A stretch of DNA of 18,797 nt from a bacterium UBP1_UBA4771 (GTDB lineage Bacteria > Krumholzibacteriota > Krumholzibacteriia > Krumholzibacteriales > Krumholzibacteriaceae). The stretch is from positions 10,489 to 29,285 of the forward strand of contig DHHN01000209.1 in NCBI GenBank assembly GCA_002403295.1. Reading direction: 5' to 3'. This document shows, piece by piece, positions 6,608 through 18,797 of the stretch. The notes under the pieces were generated by a model. The model was given only the letters and a program-made list of their open reading frames with translations, was not told the DNA's origin and did not search any database. The position numbers and the translations under genes are program-made. The first letter of the stretch is position 1, and the number at the start of each line of letters is the position of its first letter.

Positions 6608-6689
6608 CCGCTTCTCCCGCGTCGACATATTGCAGCGATGGTAAATCGCGGGGCAGGGGTATTTCAACCACTATCGAAGAGCGGCGGCG

Positions 6690-6738
6690 GGACGCCGCAG
6701 GGACGCCGCAGAATAGGAACGCCGCAGGGACGCCGCAG
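6690..6738. promoter_or_regulatory. Direct-repeat array in the pstS / operon-A divergent intergenic region: 4 copies of the 11-bp unit G(G/A)ACGCCGCAG, arranged as a 27-bp tandem duplication
   Basis: The sequence reads gGACGCCGCAGGGACGCCGCAGAATag then gAACGCCGCAGGGACGCCGCAGAATgc. 11-bp (one helical turn) phased direct repeats are the architecture of OmpR/PhoB-family response-regulator sites. This is not the E. coli Pho-box sequence. Confidence 0.4.
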
Positions 6739-6765
6739 AATGCTGCTGAACGGGCGGGGGGCGTA

Positions 6766-6774
6766 TGGTATAAT
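6766..6774 (+). promoter_or_regulatory. Consensus extended -10 element TGgTATAAT, about 56 nt upstream of the gene A start codon
   Basis: TG-n-TATAAT is read directly at 6766-6774, on the plus strand and oriented toward 6831. The repeat array lies 30-80 bp upstream. There is no good -35 (CTGAAC). Confidence 0.4.
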
Positions 6775-6830
6775 TCATGTTCGGCACGCATCGGATGTCC
6801 GGGGCAATCGCACGCCAAAGGAGCCCTTGC

Positions 6831-9122
6831 ATGAAGAGAACGAAATCGGCCGTCTTCGCGCTGTGCGCGACAGCCGCCGTCGCGGCCTTTCTCGTCGCCT
6901 CGATCAAGCGCGTCCCTCCCGGAAACGAGGCGCTGCGGATTTCGAGGGGGGGACAGCCGCAGATTCTGGGATCGGGCTGGCATTTCGTACGCCCGCTGTC
7001 GGGAGCATTCGCCGTTTATCCCGTCGGCGAGGTCTCCGTGCGATTCCCGCAGGACGGGACCGCCGCCGTGCTCCTCGGGGACGGACGCGAAACGGCGGCC
7101 GCTCTCTCCTTTCGGTTGAAGATCCCCCGCGGCTCGGCGCAAAGCCTGCACGAAATCCTCGGGAGGAACTTCTCCGCCGGCTTCGATCGTATCGTCCGCG
7201 ACGCCGTCGAAATTCGGGCCGCGTCGTGGGAAACCGGCGCCGGGGGAGAGGCGCCCGAGGCCTTCGCTCGAGCCGTCGCCTCGGACCTCGCGGAAAGCCT
7301 CTCCGGCGCGCGCGTCGAAATCCTCGCCGCGAGGGTCGAGTCCTGGGGCGATGCCGCCGGCGAGGCGCCGGCGGCCGAGGCGAACGTCTCCGCGGCGCCC
7401 CTTCGGAAGATCGTCTTCATCGGGGTCGACGCCGGCGACTGGGGAATCATCAATCCCCTGATCAGGGAAGGAAGGCTCCCCAACTTCAAGAAAATCGTCG
7501 AGGGCGGCGCCACGGGCCCCCTTCGATCGATGGATCCGATGATCTCCCCGCTTCTCTGGACGACGATGGCGACGGGCAAGCTCCCCGAGGCGCACGGGAT
7601 CTTGAGCTGCACCGCCGTCGATCCCGCGACCGGGGCGCAGATCCCGATCACGCGGATGTACCGCAAGGTCGACGCCTTTTGGAACATGATGAGCGATTAC
7701 GGGCGGAGCGTCGCCGTCATCGGCTGGCTCGCGACCTATCCCGCCGAGACGATACATGGAACGATGGTCACCGACCGGGTCGGCTACCTCGCGTATGCGG
7801 CGACGCTCGGACAGGGCGACGCGCCCCTTCCCGGCGCCGTCTCCCCCCCCGAGCGCGCGGAAGAGATCAATGGGCTCATCGTTCGAAGCAGGGATGTTTC
7901 CTTCGACGAGATGAAGCGTTTCATGCATGTCGACAAGGCCGAGCTCGAGCGCAGCCGCACCGACCGGTTCGACGCCCACAACCTCGTGAACGACATGATC
8001 CTTATATACGCCACGGCGTCGAGCTATCGCGCGATCGCCCTCCACCTGCTCGAGAAGGATCGTCCGGATTTCCTCGGCGTCTATTTCGAGCTCGTGGACG
8101 CGGCCGGTCATCTATTCATGCCGTTCGCGCCGCCGCGGAGAGAGAGCGTGAGCGAAGAGGACTACCGGAAGTACAAGGACGCGATGACGGAGACCTACGT
8201 GTTTCAGGACCGGATCATCGGCGAGCTGCTCGAGCGGTGCGACGACAATACGGTCGTCATGATCACGAGCGATCACGGCTTCAAGAGCCTCGACGCGAGA
8301 CCCACCGCGGACGCCGGGATCACGGGCGGCCACGCCCTGCAATGGCACAATCCCGAGGGGATCGTCTGTCTCTACGGCCCGGGCATCCGCCGCGGTGGCC
8401 GGATCGAGGGCGCCTCCATCATCGACGTCACGCCGACGATACTCGCGCTCGCGGGGTTCCCGCGCGTCGAGGACATGCCGGGGCGCGTGCTCGGCGAGGC
8501 GTTCGAACCGTCGCTCGCTTCATCCGTCAATCCGGCCTCGGTCGCGACGCTCCAGCGGCGCCGCGCCCCCGAAAGCGCGCCCGTGCCGCGGGGAGGCGCC
8601 CTCGAGGACGCCGAGATGAGAAAGCTCGAGGCCCTGGGCTACATCACGGTCGAGAATCCCGACGCCCTCAACAATCTCGGACAGCGCTACCAGAATCAGG
8701 GCGAGTTCGAAAAGGCGATCGCGGAGTTCAAGAAGGCGCTCGCCCTGCGGCCCAACCACGCGGGAACTCTCAATAACCTCGGCGTATCCTACGGCAGGCT
8801 CAAGCGCTATCCGGAAGCGGAGGAGGCCTTCCTGCGGGCGCTCGAGGTGAAGCCGAAGGATATGTTCGCGATGAACAACCTCGCCGTGCTGTACATGGAG
8901 AGCGGACGGCTCGACCAGGCTCGACGCTACGCCGAGCAGGCGGCCGCGACGGAGCCGAAGTACGCGAACGGGCGCTATTCCCTCGGCGTGATCTACGCGC
9001 ATGCGGGAGAGTTCGACCGGGCGACGAAGGAGTTCGAGGCGGCGCTCGCGATCGAACCGGACAACGCGCGTTTCCGCGCCGCGCTCGAACAGTGCCGGCG
9101 GGATGCGGGCGCCCGGAGATAA
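6831..9122 (+). CDS. Multi-domain membrane protein (763 aa): N-terminal TM anchor, SPFH/band-7-like domain, alkaline-phosphatase-superfamily catalytic domain (type I phosphodiesterase / nucleotide pyrophosphatase-like) and C-terminal TPR repeats
   Basis: Start ATG 6831 with AGGAG 7 nt upstream. The N-terminus MKRTKSAVFALCATAAVAAFLVASIKR is hydrophobic. The following segment (VPPGNEALRISRGG..ILGSGWHF) resembles the HflK/C SPFH entry. AP-superfamily motifs are IGVDAGDWG (metal Asp), ISPLLWTTMATG..HGI (Ser/Thr nucleophile region), FELVDAAGH and ITSDHGF. About 5 TPR units span roughly 8650-9110 (LNNLGQRY.., LNNLGVSYG.., MNNLAVLYM.., RYSLGVIYA..). Confidence 0.8.
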   Translation: MKRTKSAVFALCATAAVAAFLVASIKRVPPGNEALRISRGGQPQILGSGWHFVRPLSGAFAVYPVGEVSVRFPQDGTAAVLLGDGRETAAALSFRLKIPRGSAQSLHEILGRNFSAGFDRIVRDAVEIRAASWETGAGGEAPEAFARAVASDLAESLSGARVEILAARVESWGDAAGEAPAAEANVSAAPLRKIVFIGVDAGDWGIINPLIREGRLPNFKKIVEGGATGPLRSMDPMISPLLWTTMATGKLPEAHGILSCTAVDPATGAQIPITRMYRKVDAFWNMMSDYGRSVAVIGWLATYPAETIHGTMVTDRVGYLAYAATLGQGDAPLPGAVSPPERAEEINGLIVRSRDVSFDEMKRFMHVDKAELERSRTDRFDAHNLVNDMILIYATASSYRAIALHLLEKDRPDFLGVYFELVDAAGHLFMPFAPPRRESVSEEDYRKYKDAMTETYVFQDRIIGELLERCDDNTVVMITSDHGFKSLDARPTADAGITGGHALQWHNPEGIVCLYGPGIRRGGRIEGASIIDVTPTILALAGFPRVEDMPGRVLGEAFEPSLASSVNPASVATLQRRRAPESAPVPRGGALEDAEMRKLEALGYITVENPDALNNLGQRYQNQGEFEKAIAEFKKALALRPNHAGTLNNLGVSYGRLKRYPEAEEAFLRALEVKPKDMFAMNNLAVLYMESGRLDQARRYAEQAAATEPKYANGRYSLGVIYAHAGEFDRATKEFEAALAIEPDNARFRAALEQCRRDAGARR
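6900..7420 (+). other. SPFH/band-7-like domain region of protein A (tentative)
   Basis: Pattern match from memory to the HflC/HflK N-terminal region. No profile search was possible. Confidence 0.35.
8650..9110 (+). other. TPR repeat domain of protein A
   Basis: Repeating approximately 34-aa units are present. They show the W-LG-Y / A-F-A-P TPR signature residues (NLG..Y....EAI..F..AL...P). Confidence 0.7.
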
Positions 9123-9237: not shown

Positions 9238-10413
9238 ATGATACAGGCCCACGGCGGACAATTGGTGAATCGCCTCGCCGGCGAGCACGAACGGGCGGCG
9301 CTCGTCGCGCGCGCCGAGACGCTCCCTTCGATCACGCTCAACCGCAGGGAGGTTTCCGATCTCCACCTCATCGCCGTCGGCGCCATGAGCCCGCTCGAGG
9401 GGTTCATGGTCCGGGACGAATACGAGAGCGTTCTCGACGCCATGCGGTTGCCCCGCGGCCTCCCGTGGACCCTTCCCGTCACCCTGTCGATCAAGGACGC
9501 CGACGCCGCCCGGACGCGCCCGCCGTTCGAGGCGGCGCTCCGCGACGAGCGCGGAGCCGCGCTCGGGGTCATGCGCGTCGACGACGTGTACGAGGTCGAC
9601 CGGGAACGCGAGGCCGAGAAGGTTCTCCTCACGACCGACGGCGCGCATCCCGGCGTTCAATATCTCCGCTCGATCGAGGGCGCGTACGCCGGCGGACCGG
9701 TCACGCTCTTCGAGCGGATGGTCGACCCGCAATTCGAAACGTTCCACCTCGACCCGCGGGAAACGCGGATCCTCTTCAAGACGAAGGGCTGGGAGCGGGT
9801 CGTCGCCTTTCAGACGCGCAATCCGATCCACCGCGCGCACGAGTACCTCCTCAAATGCGCGCTCGAGATGACGGACGGGCTCCTCATCCATCCCATCATG
9901 GGGGAAACGAAATCGGACGACATTCCCGCCGCCGTCCGCATGCTCTGTTACCAGGCGATCGTGAGCGAGTATTTTCCGAAGGACCGGGTGGTTCTCTCGG
10001 TCTTTCCGGCCGCGATGCGTTACGCGGGGCCGCGCGAGGCGATCTTTCACGCGATCCTGAGAAAGAACTACGGCTGCACGCACATGATCATCGGGCGGGA
10101 TCACGCGGGCGTCGGCTCGTACTACGGCACCTATGACGCGCAGCGCATCTTCGACGCGTTCGAGCCGGACGAGCTGGAGATCGTCCCCATGATGTTCGAG
10201 CACGCCTTTTACTGCACGAAGTGCGCGGCGATGAGCTCTCCCAAGACGTGCCCCCACGGGAAGGACGCGCACCTGCAGCTCAGCGGAACGCGCGTTCGCG
10301 AGATGCTCGCGCGGGACGAGGCGCTCCCGCCCGAGTTCACCCGGCGGGAGATCGCCGAGGTGCTCGAACGCCATTATGCCGCGCGCGCCGCGAAGCGCCC
10401 GCACGAATCCTGA
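9238..10413 (+). CDS. sat: Sulfate adenylyltransferase (ATP sulfurylase), homo-oligomeric Sat type
   Basis: The motif QTRNPIHRAHE (the HxxH motif of ATP sulfurylase) is present. A PUA-like N-terminus (MIQAHGGQLVNR) and GRDHAGVG are also present. I chose the start at ATG 9238 because the listed ORF's first codon at 9229 is TTG. The C-terminal motif Cys-x2-Cys-x8-Cys-x-His resembles the Zn site of Thermus-type Sat. Confidence 0.9.
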   Translation: MIQAHGGQLVNRLAGEHERAALVARAETLPSITLNRREVSDLHLIAVGAMSPLEGFMVRDEYESVLDAMRLPRGLPWTLPVTLSIKDADAARTRPPFEAALRDERGAALGVMRVDDVYEVDREREAEKVLLTTDGAHPGVQYLRSIEGAYAGGPVTLFERMVDPQFETFHLDPRETRILFKTKGWERVVAFQTRNPIHRAHEYLLKCALEMTDGLLIHPIMGETKSDDIPAAVRMLCYQAIVSEYFPKDRVVLSVFPAAMRYAGPREAIFHAILRKNYGCTHMIIGRDHAGVGSYYGTYDAQRIFDAFEPDELEIVPMMFEHAFYCTKCAAMSSPKTCPHGKDAHLQLSGTRVREMLARDEALPPEFTRREIAEVLERHYAARAAKRPHES

Positions 10414-10429
10414 GCCGGAGAATGGAGCG

Positions 10430-11821
10430 ATGCCGAAAAAGCTCGCCGTTATCGGTCTCGATTGCCTGACGCCGCAGTTCCTCTACGGCGGCGGGCTCGA
10501 CGGGATGCCCAATTTCAAGCGGCTCATCGAAGGCTCGCTCTGGGGGAATCTCGTCTCGATCGTGCCCCCCATCACGGTTCCCGCGTGGACGTCGATGATG
10601 ACCTCGCAGGATCCCGGCATGCTCGGCATCTACGGTTTCCGCAACCGGAAAAGCTACGCGTACGAAGAGCTCTACACGGTCAACGCGAGCAACGTCAAGG
10701 CCAAGACGGTCTGGAATTACCTCTCGAGAAACCGCCTGCGCTCGATCCTCCTCGGCGTCCCGCAGACGTATCCGCCGATGCCGCTCAATGGCGTTCTCGT
10801 CGCCGACTTTCTCACGCCGGGCAAGGAATCGACGTTCACCTACCCGCCGGGGCTCAAGGAAGAGATCGACCGCGTCGCGGACGGCGAGTACATCATCGAC
10901 GTCAAGGACTTCAGAACCGACGATAAGAAATCGCTCCTCGAGCAGATCTACGTCATGACGGAGCGGCGATTCAAGGTCTTCCGGCACCTTCTCGCCCGCG
11001 AGGATTGGGATTTCGCGATGATGGTCGAGATGGGACCCGACCGGATCCATCACGCGTTCTGGCGGTTCTGCGATCCCTCGCACCGCCTATACGTCAAGGG
11101 GAACGAGTACGAGGACGTCATCCGGCGCTACTACGCCCGTCTCGATCTCGAGATCGGACGGGTGCTCGAGGCGCTTCCGTCCGACGCGTCGGTGATCGTC
11201 GTTTCGGACCACGGCGCCAAGGCGATGCGCGGGGGCATCTGCATAAACGAGTTCTTCATCCGGGAGGGTCTCCTCGCCGTCAAGGAGTATCCGAAACGAC
11301 CCGTCTCCCTCACGCCGGCGATGATCGACTGGCGGAAGACCGCGGCGTGGGGCGAGGGCGGCTACTACGCGCGCGTGTTCCTCAACGTGGCCGGACGCGA
11401 GAGCGAGGGAACGGTGCCGCGCGCCGAATACGAACGCGTCCGCGCCGACGTGAAGCGCCGTCTCGAGGGGCTCGCGGACGAGAACGGAACGAACATCGGC
11501 ACGCGCGTCTTCTATCCCGAGGAGATCTACCGGAGATGCGAAAACATTCCGCCCGATCTCATCGTCTACCTCGGCGATCTCGACTGGCGGAGCGCGGGAA
11601 GCGTGGGACACGGGGCGATCCACATCTTCGAGAACGACACGGGGCCCGACGACGCGAATCACGCGCAGGAGGGGATTTTCATCTGGCACAACCGCGGCGG
11701 CGCGGGACGCGTGACGTCGAGCCCCGCCGGAGACAAGATATCGATCTACGACGTCGCCCCGTCGATCCTCGATTTCTTCTCGATCGAGGTTCCTCCGGAC
11801 ATGATCGGACGGGTGGTATAG
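10430..11821 (+). CDS. Alkaline phosphatase superfamily protein, type I phosphodiesterase / nucleotide pyrophosphatase-like (paralog B, cytosolic, 463 aa)
   Basis: Start ATG 10430 with GGAG 2 nt upstream; the listed ORF begins at 10376. Motifs are LAVIGLDCL (metal Asp), PPITVPAWTSMMTS (nucleophile region), HHAFWRFCDPSH and VVSDHGA. No signal peptide or TM segment is present. Confidence 0.85.
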   Translation: MPKKLAVIGLDCLTPQFLYGGGLDGMPNFKRLIEGSLWGNLVSIVPPITVPAWTSMMTSQDPGMLGIYGFRNRKSYAYEELYTVNASNVKAKTVWNYLSRNRLRSILLGVPQTYPPMPLNGVLVADFLTPGKESTFTYPPGLKEEIDRVADGEYIIDVKDFRTDDKKSLLEQIYVMTERRFKVFRHLLAREDWDFAMMVEMGPDRIHHAFWRFCDPSHRLYVKGNEYEDVIRRYYARLDLEIGRVLEALPSDASVIVVSDHGAKAMRGGICINEFFIREGLLAVKEYPKRPVSLTPAMIDWRKTAAWGEGGYYARVFLNVAGRESEGTVPRAEYERVRADVKRRLEGLADENGTNIGTRVFYPEEIYRRCENIPPDLIVYLGDLDWRSAGSVGHGAIHIFENDTGPDDANHAQEGIFIWHNRGGAGRVTSSPAGDKISIYDVAPSILDFFSIEVPPDMIGRVV

Positions 11822-11868
11822 ATCGCGGGATGCGGCATCGCGAAACGCCGTTTCACAGGGAGATGACA

Positions 11869-12471
11869 ATGAAAGGTTTCACGCTCTGGTTCACCGGCCT
11901 TCCCTGCTCGGGCAAGTCGACGCTGGCGCGGCGCGTTCAGGAGATCCTCCTCGAGCGCGGGATGAACGTCGAGCTCCTCGACGGCGACGAGGTGCGGCAG
12001 AACCTTTGCAAGGGCCTCGGATACTCCAAGGAGGATCGGGACACGAATATCCGGCGCATCGGCTACGTGTGCAAGCTCCTCAGCCGCAACGGCGCGGTCG
12101 CCGTCGCCGCCGCCATCTCCCCGTACCGGGAGATCCGCGAGGAGAATAGACGCGCCATCGCCGCCTACGTCGAGGTCTACGTGAAGGCGCCGATCGAGGT
12201 GCTCGCGAAACGGGACGTCAAGGGGATGTACAAAAAGGCGCTTGCCGGCGAGATAACGAACTTCACCGGCGTCTCCGACCCGTACGAGGAACCCGAGCGC
12301 CCGGAGATCCTGATCGAATCGGACAAGGAAACGGTCGAAGACAGCACCGCGAAGATCATCCGCACGCTCGAAGTCATGGGTCTCATTCCGGGAGCACCCG
12401 CCGAAAGCGAGTATTCACCGGAGGAAGAAGAGAAGATCAAGACCCGGCTCAAGGATTTGGGATACATCTAG
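11869..12471 (+). CDS. cysC: Adenylylsulfate (APS) kinase with a 25-aa acidic C-terminal extension ending in LGYI
   Basis: P-loop WFTGLPCSGKSTLA is present. LDGDEVR.NLCKGLGYSKEDRDTNIRR aligns with E. coli CysC ([27 protein letters not shown]). KGMYKKALAGEITNFTG corresponds to KGLYKKARAGELRNFTG. GGGAG lies 7 nt upstream of ATG 11869. Confidence 0.9.
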   Translation: MKGFTLWFTGLPCSGKSTLARRVQEILLERGMNVELLDGDEVRQNLCKGLGYSKEDRDTNIRRIGYVCKLLSRNGAVAVAAAISPYREIREENRRAIAAYVEVYVKAPIEVLAKRDVKGMYKKALAGEITNFTGVSDPYEEPERPEILIESDKETVEDSTAKIIRTLEVMGLIPGAPAESEYSPEEEEKIKTRLKDLGYI

Positions 12472-12485
12472 AGGGAGCGGGCACG

Positions 12486-13790
12486 CTGCGCACACGGAGG
12501 AAGAAGGTCGCATGCGTCGTCGGTCTCGACGGCGTCCCCTTCTCGTTCATCCGCGGCATGATCGATTCCGGCGTCATGCCGAGGATGAAGGAGATCGTGT
12601 CGCGGGGCCGCATGGCGCCGATGACCGCCTCCCTTCCTGAAATCTCCTCGGTGAGCTGGTCAACGTTCATGACGGGCCTCGATCCCGGCGGCCACGGCAT
12701 CTTCGGCTTCACCGATTTCAAGGATGCGAGCTACGCGCTGCGCTACCCCTCCTTCCGCGACCTCGGGGCGCCCACGATCTGGGACCGGCTCGGCGAACGG
12801 CGGATGAGGAGCGTCGTCATCGATCAGCCCGCCACGTACCCCGCGCGTCCCATTCCCGGCGTTTTGATATCGGGCTTCGTCGCGCTCGACCTCGAGAAGG
12901 CGGTCGCTCCCCGCTCCTACCTCGCCGCACTTCGAGGCATGAACTACGAAATCGACATCGATGCGGCGAAATGCAGGGACAACCCGGACGAGCTCTTCTC
13001 CGCTCTCGGCAAGCGCCTCGCCGAAAGACGCTCCGTCGTCGACGCCCTGTGGGAGAAGGAAGAGTGGAATCTCATGGAGATCGTCGTAACGGGCACCGAC
13101 CGGCTCCACCATTTCATGTGGGACGCCTGCGAGGACGCGAACCATCCCCGCCGCGAGGACGTGCTCGCCTATTACCGCGCGATCGACGATTTTCTGGGGC
13201 ACGTGTACGAGAAGTTCCGCCGCCTCGACGCGGGCGGCAATTTCTTCATGCTCTCCGATCACGGCTTCTGCGCCGCGAAACGAGAGGTGTACGTGAACGC
13301 CGTCCTTCGCGCGGAGGGATTTCTCGATCTCGCGCCCGGCGCATCGTCCCTCGAGGGGATCACGGAGCGCACGAAAGCCTTCGCGCTCGATCCCGCGCGC
13401 ATTTACATCAACCGCGCGGGGCGATTCCCCCGGGGACGCATCGACGAGGCGGACGCGAAGTCCCTGCTCGAGGATCTCGCGGCGATATTCGACGCGCTCG
13501 AGGTCGGGGGAGAGCGGGTCGTGCGGCGGCGGTTCACGGGCCGAGAAGCGTATTCGGGACCCTTCGCCCGCCGCGGCCCGGATCTCGTGCTCGTTCCGCG
13601 AAACGGCTTCGATCTCAAGGGCCGCCCCGGCGCCGCGGAGATATCGGGCGAGAGGCGCTTTCAGGGAATGCACACGTGGGAAGACGCCTTCTTTTTCTCG
13701 CTCGACCCGGCGGCGATCGAAGATCCGAACGATCTCAACATCGTGGACGTCCCGAAAACGATCTTGAGGAGCATCGATGTCGAACCATAG
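12486..13790 (+). CDS. Alkaline phosphatase superfamily protein, PPase/PDE-like (paralog C, cytosolic). The start codon is uncertain; this call is a CTG start with the first ATG at 12558
   Basis: Homology to the paralog N-termini (KKVACVVGLDGVPFSF vs KKLAVIGLDCLTPQF) extends 15-24 codons upstream of the first in-frame ATG. The only start-like in-frame codon upstream is CTG 12486, 8 nt after GAGGGAG. Motifs are ISSVSWSTFMTG..GHGIF, HHFMWDACEDANH and LSDHGF. Confidence 0.7.
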   Translation: MRTRRKKVACVVGLDGVPFSFIRGMIDSGVMPRMKEIVSRGRMAPMTASLPEISSVSWSTFMTGLDPGGHGIFGFTDFKDASYALRYPSFRDLGAPTIWDRLGERRMRSVVIDQPATYPARPIPGVLISGFVALDLEKAVAPRSYLAALRGMNYEIDIDAAKCRDNPDELFSALGKRLAERRSVVDALWEKEEWNLMEIVVTGTDRLHHFMWDACEDANHPRREDVLAYYRAIDDFLGHVYEKFRRLDAGGNFFMLSDHGFCAAKREVYVNAVLRAEGFLDLAPGASSLEGITERTKAFALDPARIYINRAGRFPRGRIDEADAKSLLEDLAAIFDALEVGGERVVRRRFTGREAYSGPFARRGPDLVLVPRNGFDLKGRPGAAEISGERRFQGMHTWEDAFFFSLDPAAIEDPNDLNIVDVPKTILRSIDVEP

Positions 13791-15858
13791 AGGAACGCGC
13801 GCGGTCCGCGTTTCGATATGCGCCATCCTGTGCGCGCTCGGCGCGCCGGCCGCCGCGCACGCCTATATCGGCCCCGGCGCCGGCTTCGCGCTCGTTTCGT
13901 CGTTCCTCTCTTTCGTGCTCGCGTTCTTCGCCGCGTTTCTCGCCCTCTTGACCTTTCCGCTCCGCATGCTCTGGAAGAGGATGAGGCGCAAGCGCGCGCC
14001 GCGGGCGCCGCGCGCGGACAAGGTGATCGTCCTCGGGCTCGACGGCCTCGACCCCGCGATCTGCGAGCGCCTCATGGTCGCCGGCCGACTCCCCAACCTT
14101 TCGCGCCTCGCCGCCGCGGGAACGTTCCGCCGGCTCGGCACCTCGACGCCGGCGATGTCACCCGTCGCGTGGTCCACCTTCAGCACCGGCGTCGACGCCT
14201 CGCGCCACGGCATCTTCGATTTTCTCGCGCGGGATCCGAACACGTACCTCCCCGTCCTTTCCTCGAGCCGCGTCACCGCGTCGAAGCGGTTTCTGCGGCT
14301 CGGCCCCTTTCGGCTGCCGCTCGGGAAAGGAAGCGTCCGCTTTCTCCGAAAGAGCACGAGCGTCTGGAAGGTGCTCGGCGAATACGGAATCTTCAGCACC
14401 GTTCTCCGGGTCCCGATCACCTTTCCCCCGGAGCCATTGAACGGCGTCATGCTCTCCGGCATGTGCGCGCCCGATCTGCGCGGGACGATGGGATCGTTCA
14501 CGTATTTCCGCCGGGGCGAATCGGGCGGCAGGATCGGCGGCATGGTGATCGCCCTCGAGGAGAAGGACGGCGTCCTTCGGGCGTCCCTTCCCGGCCCGGA
14601 GAGCCCGGTCGCCCGCGAAACCTTGAAGCTCCCCCTCGAGATCCGCGTCGACGCGAAGAGGCGGGGCGCCGAGATTCGCGTGTCCGGCGCGCGTTTTTTC
14701 CTCCCCGAGCGGGCGTACTCGCCGTGGATCCGCCTCGCCTTCAAGGCCGCGCCGGGCGTCACGCTCCATGGCATCGCGCGGTTTTTCATCACGCGCCTCG
14801 ACGGCGACTTCGGGCTCTACGTATCGCCGATCCACATCGATCCAGAAAAACCCGCCATGCCGGTCTCCTACCCCGCGTTCTACTCGGTGTATCTCGCCAA
14901 ACGCCTCGGCGGGCCGTTCGGAACGCTCGGCCTCGCCGAGGACACGTGGGCGCTGAACGAGGGGGTTCTCGACGAAGAGGCCTTTATCGCGCAGGCGTAT
15001 CTCTTCCACCGCGAGCGCGAGGCGATGTTCCTCCACACGCTGCGCACGCAGAAGAAGGGCCTCGTCGCGTGCGTCTTCGATCTCAGCGACCGCATGCAAC
15101 ACATGTTCTTCCGGTATCTCGCGGATGACCTCGACCCCGGCGCGGCGGCGCCGGAGCGCCGCGAAACGCTCGACGAGATGTACCGCGAGATGGACGCGCT
15201 CGTCGGCAAGACGTCGGCGTTCGTCGACGGCCGGACGGCGCTCTTCGTGATCTCGGATCACGGCTTCAAGGCATTCAGGCGCGGCGTCGATCTCAACGTC
15301 TGGCTCATGCGGAACGGATATCTCGCGCTGCGCGCCGACGCGCGCGGTGACGAATTCCTCCGCGACGTCGATTGGTCGAAGACGCGGGCCTACGCGCTCG
15401 GGCTCGGGGGCGTGTATCTCAACATGAAGGGACGCGAGCGGCACGGAACGGTCGAGGCATCGGAGGCCCCCATGCTGAAAGAAGAGATCGCATCGAAGCT
15501 CCTCGCGCTCGGGGATGAGGGCGGCGGGGCGCCGGTCGTGAGCCGCGTGTTCGACACCGCTCGGGACTTCACGGGCCCGTACCGCGCGGAGGGACCGGAT
15601 CTCATCGTGGGACTCGCGGAAGGCTACCGGATTTCCTGGGACTGCGCGAGGGGGCTCGTGCAGGACGCCGTCATCGAGGATAACGAGAAGAGCTGGAGCG
15701 GCGATCACTGCATCGATCCCGCGCTCGTTCCCGGCGTTCTCTTTTCGAACATGCGCGTCGAGGCAATCGACCCGAATATCGCGGACATCGCGCCGACCAT
15801 TCTCGGGCTCTTCGGCATCGATCCGCCGCGATACATGACGGGGAGGGATCTCCTGTGA
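13777..15858 (+). CDS. Alkaline phosphatase superfamily protein, PPase/PDE-like (paralog D, 693 aa) with an N-terminal two-helix membrane hairpin and polybasic stretch
   Basis: ATG 13777 lies 5 nt after GAGGAG and overlaps the gene C 3' end by 14 nt. The N-terminus has two hydrophobic segments (VSICAILCALGAPAAAHA; FALVSSFLSFVLAFFAAFLALLTF) followed by RMLWKRMRRKRAPRAPRADK. Motifs are VIVLGLDGL, MSPVAWSTFSTG..RHGIF, ISDHGF and WSGDHC. Confidence 0.85.
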   Translation: MSNHRGTRAVRVSICAILCALGAPAAAHAYIGPGAGFALVSSFLSFVLAFFAAFLALLTFPLRMLWKRMRRKRAPRAPRADKVIVLGLDGLDPAICERLMVAGRLPNLSRLAAAGTFRRLGTSTPAMSPVAWSTFSTGVDASRHGIFDFLARDPNTYLPVLSSSRVTASKRFLRLGPFRLPLGKGSVRFLRKSTSVWKVLGEYGIFSTVLRVPITFPPEPLNGVMLSGMCAPDLRGTMGSFTYFRRGESGGRIGGMVIALEEKDGVLRASLPGPESPVARETLKLPLEIRVDAKRRGAEIRVSGARFFLPERAYSPWIRLAFKAAPGVTLHGIARFFITRLDGDFGLYVSPIHIDPEKPAMPVSYPAFYSVYLAKRLGGPFGTLGLAEDTWALNEGVLDEEAFIAQAYLFHREREAMFLHTLRTQKKGLVACVFDLSDRMQHMFFRYLADDLDPGAAAPERRETLDEMYREMDALVGKTSAFVDGRTALFVISDHGFKAFRRGVDLNVWLMRNGYLALRADARGDEFLRDVDWSKTRAYALGLGGVYLNMKGRERHGTVEASEAPMLKEEIASKLLALGDEGGGAPVVSRVFDTARDFTGPYRAEGPDLIVGLAEGYRISWDCARGLVQDAVIEDNEKSWSGDHCIDPALVPGVLFSNMRVEAIDPNIADIAPTILGLFGIDPPRYMTGRDLL

Positions 15859-17828
15859 GAATCGCGCACCTCAAGGTTCTGCTCGCGGGCGTCGCGTTGC
15901 TCGCGATCGACGGCGGCGCTTTTCCGGCGGGGACGGCCGGCGCCTCGCCGCGCGAGCGAAGCGTCATCATTCTCGGAATCGACGGAATGGATCCCATTCT
16001 GCTCGAACGTTTCATCGAAAAGGGACGCATGCCGGTTTTCGAAAAGCTCGTGCGGGAGCAATCGTATTCGCTTCTCGAGACCTCCATCCCTCCCCAGAGC
16101 CCCGTCGCGTGGTCGAACTTCATCACCGGCATGGATCCCGGCGGGCACGGCATCTTCGACTACATCGGGAGGGATCTCGAGACGTACCGGCCCTCCTTCT
16201 CGCTCACGCACGTCGACGAGCCGGGACGCGTGCTGCGCGTCGGCGGCTGGGTGATTCCCGTCTCCGCCGGCAAGGCGACTCTTCTCAGGCGGGGGAAGGC
16301 CTTCTGGCAGATACTCGACGAGCACGGCGTGCCATACACGATATCGAGAGTGCCGTCCAACTTTCCGCCCGTGCCGTGCAAGGGCCGGACGCTCTCGGGC
16401 CTCGGAACGCCCGATCTCGCGGGAAGCTATGGAACGTTTTCGTATTTCACGAACGATCCCGCCTTCGCCGGCCTCGAGGTGAGCGGCGGCTCGATATATC
16501 CCGTCGCCGTCGAGAACGGCGCGGTCTCCGCCGTTCTCATCGGTCCGCCGAACACGCTGAGAACGAGCGCCCCCCTTCTCGAAGCGCCCTTCATCGTGCA
16601 TGCCGACGCCGCGCGCGGCGCCGCGAAGATCGTCGTGGGAAAGACGGAGATGATCCTCGCGGTCGGTGAATGGAGTCCGTGGACGGAGGTCTCGTTCGAC
16701 CTCATCGGCCCGCTCCACACGCTCAAGGGCATCTGCCGTTTCTATCTGAAATCGATCGATCCGCACTTCGGCCTCTACGTGACGCCGCTCAACATCCACC
16801 CCGCGCATCCCGCGCTCCCGATCTCCACGCCATCGAGGTACGCGGCCGAGCTCTCCCGCGCGATCGGACACTTCTACACGCAGGGAAACCCCGAGGACAC
16901 GAAGGCGCTCGAGTGGGGCGTCTTCGACGACGCGGAGTTCATCCATCAGGCGAGACTCGTTCTCGGCGAGCAGCGGCGGATGCTCGACGCGGCCCTCGAC
17001 GAGCATGACGGCGGCTTGCTCTTCTTTTACGTTTCGACGCTCGATCTCTGCCAGCACATGCTGTGGAGAAACATGGACCCCGCCCACCCCGCTCATTTCG
17101 AAGAGGCCGCGGCGCACAAGGACGAAATCGAAAACCTCTACGTCGAAATGGACCGCCTCGTCGCGCACGTGCTCGAGCGGATCCCGCCCGATGCCGCGTT
17201 CATCATCATGTCGGACCACGGCTTTTCTCCTTACTACCGGAAATTCAACCTCAACACGTGGCTCCTCGAGAACGGCTATCTCGAGCTCGTCGATCCGGCC
17301 GCGATGGAGCGCTCGCGGCTCTTCGAAAACGTCCACTGGAGAAAAACGAAGGCGTACGGCGTGGGCTTCAACGGACTCTACGTGAACCTTCGCGGACGCG
17401 AGGGCAAGGGGATCGTGCGCGCGGGCGCCGAATGCGAAGAGCTGCTCCGCGAAATCGGCGACAAGCTCCTCGCCGCGAAGGATCCCGAAACGGGGGCCTC
17501 GCCGATTCGGAGCGTGTATCGCGCGAGCGAGATCTATCACGGCGCGGAAGCGCGGAACGCCCCCGACCTCGTCATCGGATACCGGCGGGGGTATCGCTGC
17601 AGCGATCAATCGGTGCTCGGAGATTTCACGCGGGACGTCTTCGGTTGGAACATGGACAAATGGAGCGGCGATCACTGCATGGCCGCGGAGGAGGTTCCCG
17701 GCATCCTCATCGCGAACAGGAAACTGCGCGTGAGCGATCCGCGGCTCGGCGATTTCGCGGCCACGATCCTCTCGCTCTTCGGCATCGACGGCTCGAAGGC
17801 GCCGGCATCGAGCCGCTCGATCTTCTAA
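15855..17828 (+). CDS. Alkaline phosphatase superfamily protein, PPase/PDE-like (paralog E, 657 aa) with a predicted Sec signal peptide
   Basis: GTG start at 15855, in a GTGA overlap with the gene D stop. GGGAGGG lies 7 nt upstream. The N-terminus MRIAHLKVLLAGVALLAIDGGAFPAGTAGA-SP is signal-like. Motifs are VIILGIDGM, SPVAWSNFITG..GHGIF, MSDHGF and WSGDHC. It is closest in sequence to paralog D. Confidence 0.85.
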   Translation: MRIAHLKVLLAGVALLAIDGGAFPAGTAGASPRERSVIILGIDGMDPILLERFIEKGRMPVFEKLVREQSYSLLETSIPPQSPVAWSNFITGMDPGGHGIFDYIGRDLETYRPSFSLTHVDEPGRVLRVGGWVIPVSAGKATLLRRGKAFWQILDEHGVPYTISRVPSNFPPVPCKGRTLSGLGTPDLAGSYGTFSYFTNDPAFAGLEVSGGSIYPVAVENGAVSAVLIGPPNTLRTSAPLLEAPFIVHADAARGAAKIVVGKTEMILAVGEWSPWTEVSFDLIGPLHTLKGICRFYLKSIDPHFGLYVTPLNIHPAHPALPISTPSRYAAELSRAIGHFYTQGNPEDTKALEWGVFDDAEFIHQARLVLGEQRRMLDAALDEHDGGLLFFYVSTLDLCQHMLWRNMDPAHPAHFEEAAAHKDEIENLYVEMDRLVAHVLERIPPDAAFIIMSDHGFSPYYRKFNLNTWLLENGYLELVDPAAMERSRLFENVHWRKTKAYGVGFNGLYVNLRGREGKGIVRAGAECEELLREIGDKLLAAKDPETGASPIRSVYRASEIYHGAEARNAPDLVIGYRRGYRCSDQSVLGDFTRDVFGWNMDKWSGDHCMAAEEVPGILIANRKLRVSDPRLGDFAATILSLFGIDGSKAPASSRSIF

Positions 17829-17851
17829 CCGGCGGAAAGGGGCGGGGTCAG

Positions 17852-18046
17852 ATGTTCGACCCGAAGGTCAAGATAGACAAGGAGCTCTACGCGAAGCTCA
17901 AGAGAGCGGCCGAGGTCGCGGGCTATTCGTCGGTCGATGAGTTCATTATCCACGTTCTCGAGAGAGAAGTGTCGAAGCTCGGCGGCGACGAGGCGACCGA
18001 CGAAGAGATACGAAAGAAACTCGAGGGGCTGGGGTATATCTCCTGA
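17852..18046 (+). CDS. Small (64 aa) ribbon-helix-helix (CopG/Arc/MetJ-like) putative DNA-binding protein with an acidic C-terminal tail ending ..KKLEGLGYIS
   Basis: ATG 17852 lies 23 nt after the gene E stop. KVKIDKELYAKLKRAAEVAGYSSVDEFIIHVLEREV fits the RHH beta-alpha-alpha pattern. GC3 bias is coding-like. It sits inside the longer listed frame 17063-18046. Confidence 0.6.
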   Translation: MFDPKVKIDKELYAKLKRAAEVAGYSSVDEFIIHVLEREVSKLGGDEATDEEIRKKLEGLGYIS

Positions 18047-18057
18047 TTCGTGAGATT

Positions 18058-18797
18058 ATGGAACTCATTTCGAAGATCATAACGGCCGTGCTCGACGCGC
18101 TGCTCATCCCGTTCGGCGAGGGACGTCATGCGCTCGGCCTCGCGTGGCTCTCGCTTCTCACGGGCGTGGGCATGGCGCTCGTCTTCAAGCTCACGTCCGA
18201 CACAAGAAAGATCAAACAGGCCAAGGATCTCGGCAAGTCGTTCATCCTCGAGATGCGGATCTATCGCGACGACGCGGGAACGATCTTCGCCTCGTTTTTC
18301 CGCTCGCTCCGGGCGAATCTCGTCTACCTGCGCCACATGCTGCCGCCGTTCCTCGCGATCGTCGTTCCCGCCGCCCTCATTTTCATGCAGCTCGACGAGC
18401 GGTACGGCCGAAGCCACCTTCCCGCCGGTTCGACGACCGTTCTCTCCGTCTTTCTCGCGGAGGGCGCGGGGGCGCTCGCGGAGCGCTCTTCCGTCGCCTG
18501 CGGCCCGGGAGTCGCCGTGGAGGCCGGTCCGGTATGGATCAGCGGGACGCGCGAGCTCGCCTGGCGTCTCAGGATCGACGCTCCCGGCACGCACGATGTC
18601 GCGATCTCGATCGATGGAAGCGAGTATGTCGTGCCGCTCGTCGCCGAGACGGCGCACCGGATGATCGGTCACGCGCGAAGCTCGTCCGTCATCGAATCGC
18701 TTCTTCATCCCGGCCTTCCGCCCATCCCCGACGGCTCGCCCATCGAGACCGTGCGGCTTCGCTATCCCGGGGCCCGCTATCCGCTCCTCTTCTGGCG
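18058..18797 (+). CDS. Hypothetical membrane protein with at least 2 TM segments; 3' end lies beyond the window
   Basis: The frame is open from ATG 18058 to the window end, with strong GC3 bias. It is not in the supplied track because no stop occurs in the window. Hydrophobic segments are ALGLAWLSLLTGVGMALVF and MLPPFLAIVVPAALIFM. The listed antisense ORF 17923-18708 is therefore probably spurious. Confidence 0.55.
   Translation, partial: MELISKIITAVLDALLIPFGEGRHALGLAWLSLLTGVGMALVFKLTSDTRKIKQAKDLGKSFILEMRIYRDDAGTIFASFFRSLRANLVYLRHMLPPFLAIVVPAALIFMQLDERYGRSHLPAGSTTVLSVFLAEGAGALAERSSVACGPGVAVEAGPVWISGTRELAWRLRIDAPGTHDVAISIDGSEYVVPLVAETAHRMIGHARSSSVIESLLHPGLPPIPDGSPIETVRLRYPGARYPLLFW

Follow-up and report, generated by a model that had tools for sequence, protein, structure and literature searches.

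An SPFH core fused to a phosphodiesterase-like domain and a TPR array in a predicted periplasmic protein of Krumholzibacteriaceae

We analyzed a stretch of 18,797 nucleotides (hereafter the window) from the bacterium UBP1_UBA4771 of the family Krumholzibacteriaceae (GenBank assembly GCA_002403295.1, contig DHHN01000209.1, positions 10,489 to 29,285, forward strand), and in particular the gene at window positions 6831-9122 (+), whose product is called protein A. This gene is a single open reading frame (ORF) of 763 aa with its stop codon at 9120-9122. A database protein of 763 aa (P0001) is 100% identical to protein A, and identical public contigs carry a called gene of the same length. The ATG at 6831 was taken as the start because it is preceded by the ribosome-binding site (RBS) AAAGGAG, whereas the earliest in-frame ATG (6777) lies 3 nt past a TATAAT hexamer and has no RBS. 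A first-pass annotation had described the product as a fusion of a membrane anchor, an SPFH (Band 7) module, a catalytic domain of the alkaline phosphatase (AP) superfamily and an array of tetratricopeptide repeats (TPR). All four parts were found by Pfam, AlphaFold2 (AF2) and Foldseek and had been placed correctly (Table 1); this four-domain architecture is nearly certain.

Table 1. Features of the protein A gene and its upstream region (window coordinates; aa, residues of protein A; CDS, coding sequence; TM, transmembrane; PSSM, position-specific scoring matrix)
Feature	Position	Strand	Basis or remark
Four 11-nt direct repeats GGRACGCCGCAG, as two 26-nt units	6689..6741	none	pstS / protein A intergenic region
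Perfect TATAAT, -10-like hexamer	6769..6774	+	direct reading
Shine-Dalgarno AAAGGAG	6817..6823	+	7 nt before ATG 6831
Complete CDS, TM-SPFH-AP-TPR protein	6831..9122	+	ORF, Pfam, P0001
N-terminal TM helix, aa 2-24, uncleaved signal anchor	6834..6902	+	hydrophobicity, AF2 helix
SPFH / Band-7 core, aa 25-175, without following coiled coil	6903..7355	+	Pfam, profile, AF2/Foldseek
Ala/Gly/Glu-rich linker, aa 176-192	7356..7406	+	AF2, alignment
AP-superfamily (NPP-like) catalytic domain, aa 193-575; D200, S239, D423, H427, D481, H482, H506	7407..8555	+	
Invariant linker motif ALEDAEMRKLEALGYIT, aa 590-606	8598..8648	+	alignment, PSSM; family hallmark
Four TPR repeats and C-terminal capping helix, aa 610-762	8658..9119	+	Pfam, AF2

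Domains of protein A and their distribution

The membrane localization proposed earlier agrees with the N-terminal TM helix at residues 2-24. The SPFH part gave only a weak match to Band_7 (PF01145; residues 27-170, 28.5 bits against a gathering threshold of 23.6, E = 1.9e-6), which is nevertheless genuine, because three independent routes agree. Among 45 full-length relatives, 36 matched Band_7 at E ≤ 1e-3 (best 6.9e-12). When a profile of the first 190 residues, derived from 32 relatives, was searched against all PDB sequences, two prohibitins came first (E = 5.9e-5 and 6e-4, positions 23-178), followed by QmcA, erlin and HflC. An AF2 model of residues 1-190 had a mean predicted local distance difference test score (pLDDT) of 91.1, and all of its 50 best Foldseek matches in PDB were SPFH or vault shoulder domains (best E = 2.7e-10), with prohibitin, HflK/C, erlin, stomatin, QmcA and flotillin among them. 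This separate model served to test the fold, since TPR and AP matches crowded the Foldseek results for the full-length model (pLDDT 85.4). The region at 6900-7420, in which the scaffold module had been seen, is thus supported by Band_7/SPFH profiles and is well ordered rather than disordered.

In the AF2 models the SPFH core comprises strands (residues 25-98), a helical stretch (103-156) and a last strand (163-174). In the full-length model this strand leads through the linker, whose pLDDT is below 50 at residues 176-182 and which is poorly conserved across the aligned relatives, into the first strand of the AP domain, and no coiled-coil CC1/CC2 region was present after the core. HflK/HflC, prohibitin 1/2 and erlin 1/2, the best matches of the SPFH part (profile E = 5.9e-5, Foldseek E = 2.7e-10 to 1e-8), share with protein A a TM helix directly before the SPFH core. 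However, they continue into long CC1/CC2 helices and a C-terminal cap and thus build closed cages, 11- to 13-fold or larger, that enclose a client protease, whereas in protein A the core ends at residue 175 and is followed by the enzyme and the TPRs, and no partner protease or NfeD gene was found near its gene. In solved SPFH assemblies, it is the coiled-coil helices, together with a C-terminal cap, that close the cage. The coiled coil was described as 'necessary for oligomerization' in the classic members by a 2009 survey of prokaryotic SPFH proteins (PMC2636767). An SPFH core modeled without coiled coils is therefore unlikely to form a closed cage, and lateral SPFH-SPFH clustering is possible. 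The ring or cage envisaged in the first-pass annotation thus finds little support, also because many relatives dispense with SPFH (see below).

The catalytic part matched Phosphodiest (PF01663) at residues 195-488 with 108 bits (E = 1e-30) and has the alpha/beta core fold of the AP superfamily. Sulfatase (PF00884) scored 22.9 bits on protein A, under its cut-off of 25, and covered the C-terminal part only. In an alignment of the 45 full-length relatives (44-68% identity), D200, S239, P240, W243, T244, H255-G256, D423, H427, D481-H482 and W505-H506 were invariant, and the catalytic set was also invariant in a second set of 16 sequences; hence the motifs are intact, as a catalytic role for the domain had presupposed, and not degenerate. 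In the alignment with phosphonoacetate hydrolase (PhnA), S239 falls on the nucleophile, a position recognizable from the difference between the PDB sequences of the wild type and an Ala variant. Metal ligands (D200, D423, H427, D481, H482 and H506) were assigned by motif order and by the PhnA alignment, and the order D...S...D-x3-H...D-H...H agrees with the two-metal site of enzymes of the nucleotide pyrophosphatase/phosphodiesterase (NPP) type. The fold ranking was headed by NPP7 (alkaline sphingomyelinase, 24.7), Xanthomonas NPP (24.6), NPP6 (choline glycerophosphodiesterase, 24.0) and NPP4 (23.7), followed by PhoK/PafA (23.6), sulfatases (19-23.5), LtaP (19.2), PbgA (18.3) and MCR-1 (18.1). 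No solved structure is a close relative, as all are at most 20% identical to this AP domain. Compared with Xanthomonas NPP and human NPP4, NPP6 and NPP7 (18-19% identity), protein A differs in the sub-domain at residues ~320-410, in having Ser rather than Thr as the nucleophile and in the spacing of the last His, and its SPFH and TPR parts have no counterpart in these enzymes. By fold and motifs, the AP domain is apparently an NPP-like branch member that looks active.

TPR_1/TPR_2 matched four stretches between residues 610 and 755 (E = 1e-28 to 1e-29), and AF2 predicted four helix pairs, which puts the repeats at residues 610-741, and a capping helix reaching residue 762; designed 4-repeat consensus TPR proteins resembled this part closely (Foldseek TM 0.87-0.89). 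Its best fold matches were O-GlcNAc transferase/SPINDLY and the periplasmic TPR lipoproteins PilF/PilW, in which a TPR array accompanying an enzyme or machine holds a macromolecular substrate. In protein A, however, the TPRs lie C-terminal to the catalytic domain, number only four (4 to ~11 in relatives) and go with an unrelated catalytic chemistry.

The AP and TPR parts are joined by the most conserved short motif of the family (consensus AADEExMKKLEALGY[ILV], hereafter KLEALGY). K598, L599, A601, L602 and Y604 were invariant in 45 sequences, and G603 nearly so; in 227 unique family motifs, conservation was 99% for L at -3, 97% for L at 0, 99% for G and 100% for Y. A PSSM built from these 227 motifs was scored on all 15 window genes. 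Its top position was the C-terminus of a 64-aa protein (ATDEEIRKKLEGLGYIS followed by the stop codon, 38.1 bits), ahead of the motif of protein A itself (37.6 bits); the C-terminus of CysC (EEEEKIKTRLKDLGYI, again at the stop codon) ranked third with 9.8 bits, and the next best position scored -8.6. The CysC tail closes a C-terminal extension of ~50 aa (window 12139-12471) and is kept in two other loci (L005 and L089). The 64-aa protein (window 17852-18046), which is ribbon-helix-helix-like, ends in DEEIRKKLEGLGYIS, and its LGYI-type tail was kept in 62 of 62 listed clusters. Since neither CysC nor the 64-aa protein has an export signal, the motif would either have a shared partner on both sides of the membrane or dock AP domains.

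A search of 5.8 billion proteins with protein A yielded 355 clusters. The best 120 were nearly all 740-800 aa long and 45-69% identical, came from Candidatus Eisenbacteria, Latescibacteria and Krumholzibacteria, and were annotated at source only as 'alkaline phosphatase family protein' or 'TPR protein'. Full-length relatives number hundreds in Latescibacterota, Krumholzibacteriia and Eisenbacteria. When 1.84 billion representatives of clusters at 50% identity were searched with a profile of residues 1-608, 4843 matched at E ≤ 1e-30. Alignments starting within the first 50 profile positions indicate TM, SPFH and AP together, and those starting at position ~175-195 indicate that SPFH is lacking. 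By this measure ~58 of the best 150 representatives (all below 1e-103) have the TM, SPFH and AP parts, with lengths to ~1040 aa, and the remainder lack SPFH; in nearly all of the 150, the match stops at the KLEALGY motif (position 603-606). PF01663 was followed by 4 to ~11 TPRs in 10 of 10 sampled representatives. With a profile of the SPFH part alone, by which this anchor was sought on other enzymes, the 5.8 billion proteins gave no match at E ≤ 1e-3, probably because the candidate filter was swamped. At least 577 GTDB species-representative genomes or loci (one genome per GTDB species) encode an AP-TPR relative, the named hosts including members of Acidobacteriota (Thermoanaerobaculia, Bryobacterales, Vicinamibacterales, Holophagales), Planctomycetota, Verrucomicrobiota, Bacteroidota, Myxococcota, Binatia and Latescibacterota. 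Myxococcota (L018) and Acidobacteriota (L025, L032, L037, L045), which lie outside the Latescibacterota group, also had matches covering SPFH. One Acidobacteriota metagenome-assembled genome (CAZMRF01) encodes both an SPFH-bearing and an SPFH-less AP-TPR copy (L025, L068).

The SPFH-enzyme-TPR architecture, of which the first-pass annotation knew no other example, is therefore not rare among sequences, but it does appear to be new to the literature, in which we found no description of an SPFH-enzyme fusion, of the AP-TPR family or of its function. The words 'fused', 'TPR' and 'phosphatase' are absent from the 2009 SPFH survey (PMC2636767). NCBIfam returned only generic TPR matches on protein A, all under cut-off, and none of the family members is characterized or annotated as SPFH.

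Membrane sidedness and exchangeable anchors

Among the 120 close relatives, ten are shorter (606-617 aa) and lack SPFH, while being 55-63% identical over AP-KLEALGY-TPR. Five of them (P0040, P0044, P0046, P0047 and P0063; 57-63% identical over AP-TPR) start with canonical lipoprotein signal peptides, in which a basic n-region precedes a hydrophobic core and the lipobox Cys is followed by a Ser/Gly-rich tether, for example MNGSKRLGGGILFSLLVVFFLTAAG ahead of CSSKDSGG (...FFLTAAG directly before the Cys). The other five have a single N-terminal hydrophobic anchor. In a rule-based scan of the N-termini of 280 family proteins, 158 were assigned to the SPFH class, 67 to plain TM or signal and 28 to lipobox, at least one of which (P0225) looks like a false positive; 12 had other long N-termini, several resembling divergent SPFH, and 15 were fragments or had no recognizable anchor. 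Because close relatives without SPFH carry lipoprotein or TM anchors, the TM helix and SPFH core together are exchangeable and form one of three tethers for this enzyme.

Lipoproteins are exported proteins, and thus the AP-TPR module of these relatives works outside the cytoplasm. The sequences indicate that the AP-TPR family most likely works outside the cytoplasmic membrane in general. Protein A is ~60% identical to the lipoprotein relatives, which argues for an N-in/C-out orientation, and we consider it very probable that its domains are periplasmic. The charge distribution around the TM helix points the same way. In 151 SPFH-bearing members, the net charge was +2.2 before the helix versus +0.9 in the 15 residues after it, and the N-side was more positive in 105 of them, which favors N-in. 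Prohibitin, HflK/C and erlin, which the SPFH part resembles, are type-II proteins whose bodies lie outside the cytoplasm, the orientation suggested here for protein A. We considered, and set aside, binding of the TPR part of protein A to the two LGYI tails (CysC and the 64-aa protein), since the lipoprotein relatives put the TPR part outside the cytoplasm.

Neighboring genes and upstream region

Downstream of the protein A gene and on the same strand are genes for Sat (ATP sulfurylase), a PF01663 protein, CysC and three more PF01663 proteins, and then for the 64-aa protein and a membrane protein. No terminator-like site was detected between the protein A gene and position 9300. NCBIfam had no model for the AP paralogs, the 64-aa protein or the downstream membrane protein. 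The paralogs, which are uncharacterized and of the COG3379 type ('predicted AlkP superfamily phosphohydrolase/phosphomutase'), share with protein A the PF01663 domain, the [ST]-x-[PV]-x-W-[ST] nucleophile motif and the D...H and DH motifs. However, they are only 23-29% identical to its AP domain, have a different, large insertion that separates the DHG motif from the last His, lack SPFH, KLEALGY and TPR, and belong to a separate mobile module with CysC.

The first-pass annotation regarded protein A as the product of the first gene of an operon. When the window proteins were compared by tblastn with 88 fetched loci, the arrangement with pst and Sat/CysC was confined to four lineages with at least 56% identity, namely that of the window (its own contigs) and those of L005, L009 and L015. 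Nine other Latescibacterota/Krumholzibacteriia loci have divergent GT2 and RmlD genes upstream and gpmI directly downstream, and a PMT_2-type glycosyltransferase and a DegT aminotransferase occur near protein A in loci of this type. The gpmI gene, a central glycolytic gene, codes for cofactor-independent phosphoglycerate mutase, which is itself an AP-superfamily enzyme. Its start overlaps the stop of the protein A gene (TGATG in L002, 12225-12240; ATGA in L004, 12270-12285), implying translational coupling. Among the fetched loci, more distant relatives share no neighbors of either layout. The GT2 protein is rhamnosyltransferase-like, although below the NCBIfam cut-off. An Arn-like lipid A aminoarabinose cluster was considered for this context and rejected, as the 'epimerase' is RmlD (NCBIfam, 286 bits against a cut-off of 224).

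In addition, the module of AP, CysC, three AP, small protein and membrane protein genes occurs without protein A (L089:2205-11083 and the contig of P0314). With the Sat/CysC link limited to four lineages and the module found without protein A, the proposed operon membership does not hold in general and is a lineage-specific juxtaposition. Moreover, Sat, CysC and the 463-aa AP paralog have no signal peptide and depend on intracellular ATP or 3'-phosphoadenosine-5'-phosphosulfate (PAPS). These proteins would therefore be on the opposite side of the membrane from the domains of protein A.

Several further observations were made on the module, which lies at window 10376-18797 and exists with or without Sat, its small protein being 61-64 aa and its membrane protein ~270 aa long. 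In it, PAPS synthesis genes stand beside genes for four AP-superfamily enzymes. One PF01663 paralog, 410 aa when read from the first ATG (ORF 12558-13790), has neither strand 1 nor the first metal-binding Asp. The frame is open upstream (window 12472-12560), where it encodes ...RKKVACVVGLDG, and the RBS AGAGGGAG (12470-12477) is followed by ACG at 12483 and CTG at 12486. A non-canonical start giving ~434 aa is therefore likely, and the relatives are 435 aa long. The 693-aa paralog begins (window 13777-14050) with a signal-like segment ending in AHA, followed by YIGPGAGF, a TM helix and the strongly basic stretch KRMRRKRAPRAPR, which suggests an N-out/C-in orientation with a cytoplasmic AP domain. 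The last paralog of L089 instead has a twin-arginine signal (TRRDFLK); the L089 segments concerned are L089:5710-5920 and L089:7898-8000. Judging by these two paralogs, the AP enzymes of the CysC module seem to be distributed over both sides of the membrane.

On the other side, the protein A gene of the window is divergent from pstSCAB; most relatives are not adjacent to pst. The two 26-nt repeat units in this intergenic region are 96% identical, and a third, degenerate copy is present. The exact GGRACGCCGCAG repeat was found only in near-identical loci (L006-L008). Its spacing is typical of OmpR/PhoB-type regulators, its sequence does not resemble the Pho box of E. coli, and the repeats are a candidate binding site for a response regulator. 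The TATAAT hexamer is a lead rather than a mapped promoter, as a consensus promoter scan called no full -35/-10 pair around it. In a relative that is 62% identical, a gene for an Rrf2-family regulator lies between pstS and the protein A gene (L005:9260-9673); this gene is absent from the window.

Proposed function and alternatives

Taken together, we propose, with a probability of roughly 0.6, that protein A is a type-II periplasmic NPP-like phosphodiesterase, held at the membrane by its SPFH part and binding a partner or substrate through its TPR part. The protein would cross the inner membrane once, N-in/C-out, so that its whole body faces the periplasm, and the SPFH core would lie against the outer face of this membrane beside the TM helix, as in other type-II SPFH proteins. 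A flexible linker would carry the two-metal NPP-type domain, which would hydrolyze a phosphodiester by way of a phospho-Ser239 intermediate; the substrate would belong to the envelope or be associated with the membrane. Such a reaction is suggested because the fold is NPP-like, the two-metal site is complete and the enzyme is tethered to the membrane. Through the KLEALGY linker, the AP domain would be joined to the four-repeat TPR, which might hold a protein or polymer partner or the substrate. On this view the SPFH part would be a replaceable module keeping the enzyme at the membrane surface and perhaps gathering it into clusters, and neither a closed cage nor a platform for cytoplasmic enzymes. 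The divergent pstSCAB genes and the GGRACGCCGCAG repeats fit a release of phosphate near its transporter, in the window lineage only, but the commoner context, with its rhamnose/glycan genes and with gpmI, suggests a housekeeping role in the envelope.

It should be noted, however, that several points weigh against this proposal. The orientation, activity and substrate of protein A are all inferred. At residues 255-261 (nt 7593-7613), protein A and its closest relative (P0003) have HGILSCT, whereas most relatives have HGILNFT; thus, the Asn after the HG motif is replaced by Ser-Cys, and this missing Asn may correspond to the phosphoryl-binding Asn of NPPs. The presence of the KLEALGY motif at the C-termini of CysC and the 64-aa protein, neither of which has a signal peptide, is awkward for a purely periplasmic partner, and the placement of the KLEALGY segment in the AF2 model is of low confidence (pLDDT 46-58). 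Finally, a ring of protein A SPFH cores is conceivable.

The strongest rival, although we regard it as improbable, is that protein A is a phospho-headgroup transferase similar to EptA/MCR-1, LtaS, OpgB or BcsG, in which the Ser would move phosphoethanolamine or phosphoglycerol from a membrane phospholipid to an envelope acceptor (glycan or protein) held by the TPRs and the SPFH part would stand in for the multi-helix membrane domain in presenting the lipid. The compartment, the tether and the glycan genes nearby would fit such an enzyme, though the kept neighbors may only reflect the shared ancestry of related genomes. However, the complete set of D423, H427, H506, D200, D481 and H482 is typical of NPP/AP hydrolases, and the closest folds are NPPs and not LtaS or EptA. 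The known enzymes of this kind (EptA/MCR-1, LtaS/LtaP, OpgB and BcsG, as well as PbgA/YejM) belong to the sulfatase PF00884 branch, have anchors of 4-5 TM helices and lack the full M1 metal site, SPFH and TPR, whereas protein A has a single TM helix and no multi-TM lipid-binding domain. We therefore think of protein A as probably a hydrolase rather than a transferase. Least probable of all is a non-catalytic sensor or adaptor in the manner of PbgA/YejM, whose AP fold would bind an envelope lipid or glycan and whose TPR and SPFH parts would signal to a partner such as a protease. The invariance of seven catalytic residues across the 45 relatives, down to 44% identity, argues for catalysis, and no protease gene was found among the kept neighbors.

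Two other explanations place protein A with its cytoplasmic neighbors, and both seem very unlikely. The first-pass annotation suggested that protein A builds an assembly platform for the operon; here, an SPFH ring or cage would organize the downstream products (Sat, CysC and the four AP paralogs) and catalysis would take place inside it. The SPFH fold is genuine, the gene precedes Sat-AP-CysC-AP-AP-AP in the same direction (an order kept in L005, L009 and L015) with no terminator-like site in between, and the KLEALGY-like tails of CysC and the 64-aa protein hint at a physical link. Nevertheless, the lipoprotein relatives place the AP-TPR part outside the cytoplasm, away from Sat, CysC and at least one AP paralog; cage-forming coiled coils are absent, and SPFH itself is missing from many close relatives; and in most relatives the neighbors differ. 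Slightly less credible still is the opposite orientation, N-out/C-in as in QmcA, in which the TPRs would dock the ...KLxxLGYI tails, so that PAPS would be made at the membrane. C-terminal peptides are frequent ligands of TPR domains, and the ranking of the 64-aa protein and CysC tails in the motif scan, as well as the retention of the former in all 62 listed clusters, would agree with this; the lipoprotein signals of relatives and the charge bias, however, speak for N-in, and the tails also occur in loci with no protein A gene in the fetched region.

A further variant, which we consider doubtful but less remote than these two, keeps protein A in the periplasm. Even without coiled coils, its SPFH core might oligomerize on the periplasmic face and array many AP domains and TPR arms about a membrane patch, with KLEALGY serving as a portable docking peptide. 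If true, this would be an enzyme-bearing SPFH microdomain, of a kind undescribed for any SPFH protein, and the KLEALGY peptide at their C-termini would recruit CysC and the 64-aa protein to AP-superfamily paralogs.

Each domain of protein A is ordinary, and sequences of the family are already in public databases. What is new is an SPFH core without the oligomerizing coiled coils, fused to an enzyme predicted to be periplasmic; SPFH proteins are otherwise known as cage-forming organizers of membrane patches that act on separate client proteins. The natural swap of anchors, in which a lipid anchor or a plain helix takes the place of SPFH, makes the contribution of the SPFH part directly testable, and comparing the anchor forms would show what the SPFH core alone adds, be it membrane positioning, lipid selection or clustering. 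The substrate of the AP-TPR module is of interest for uncultured bacteria of soil and sediment, whether for their envelope biology or for their phosphorus cycling.

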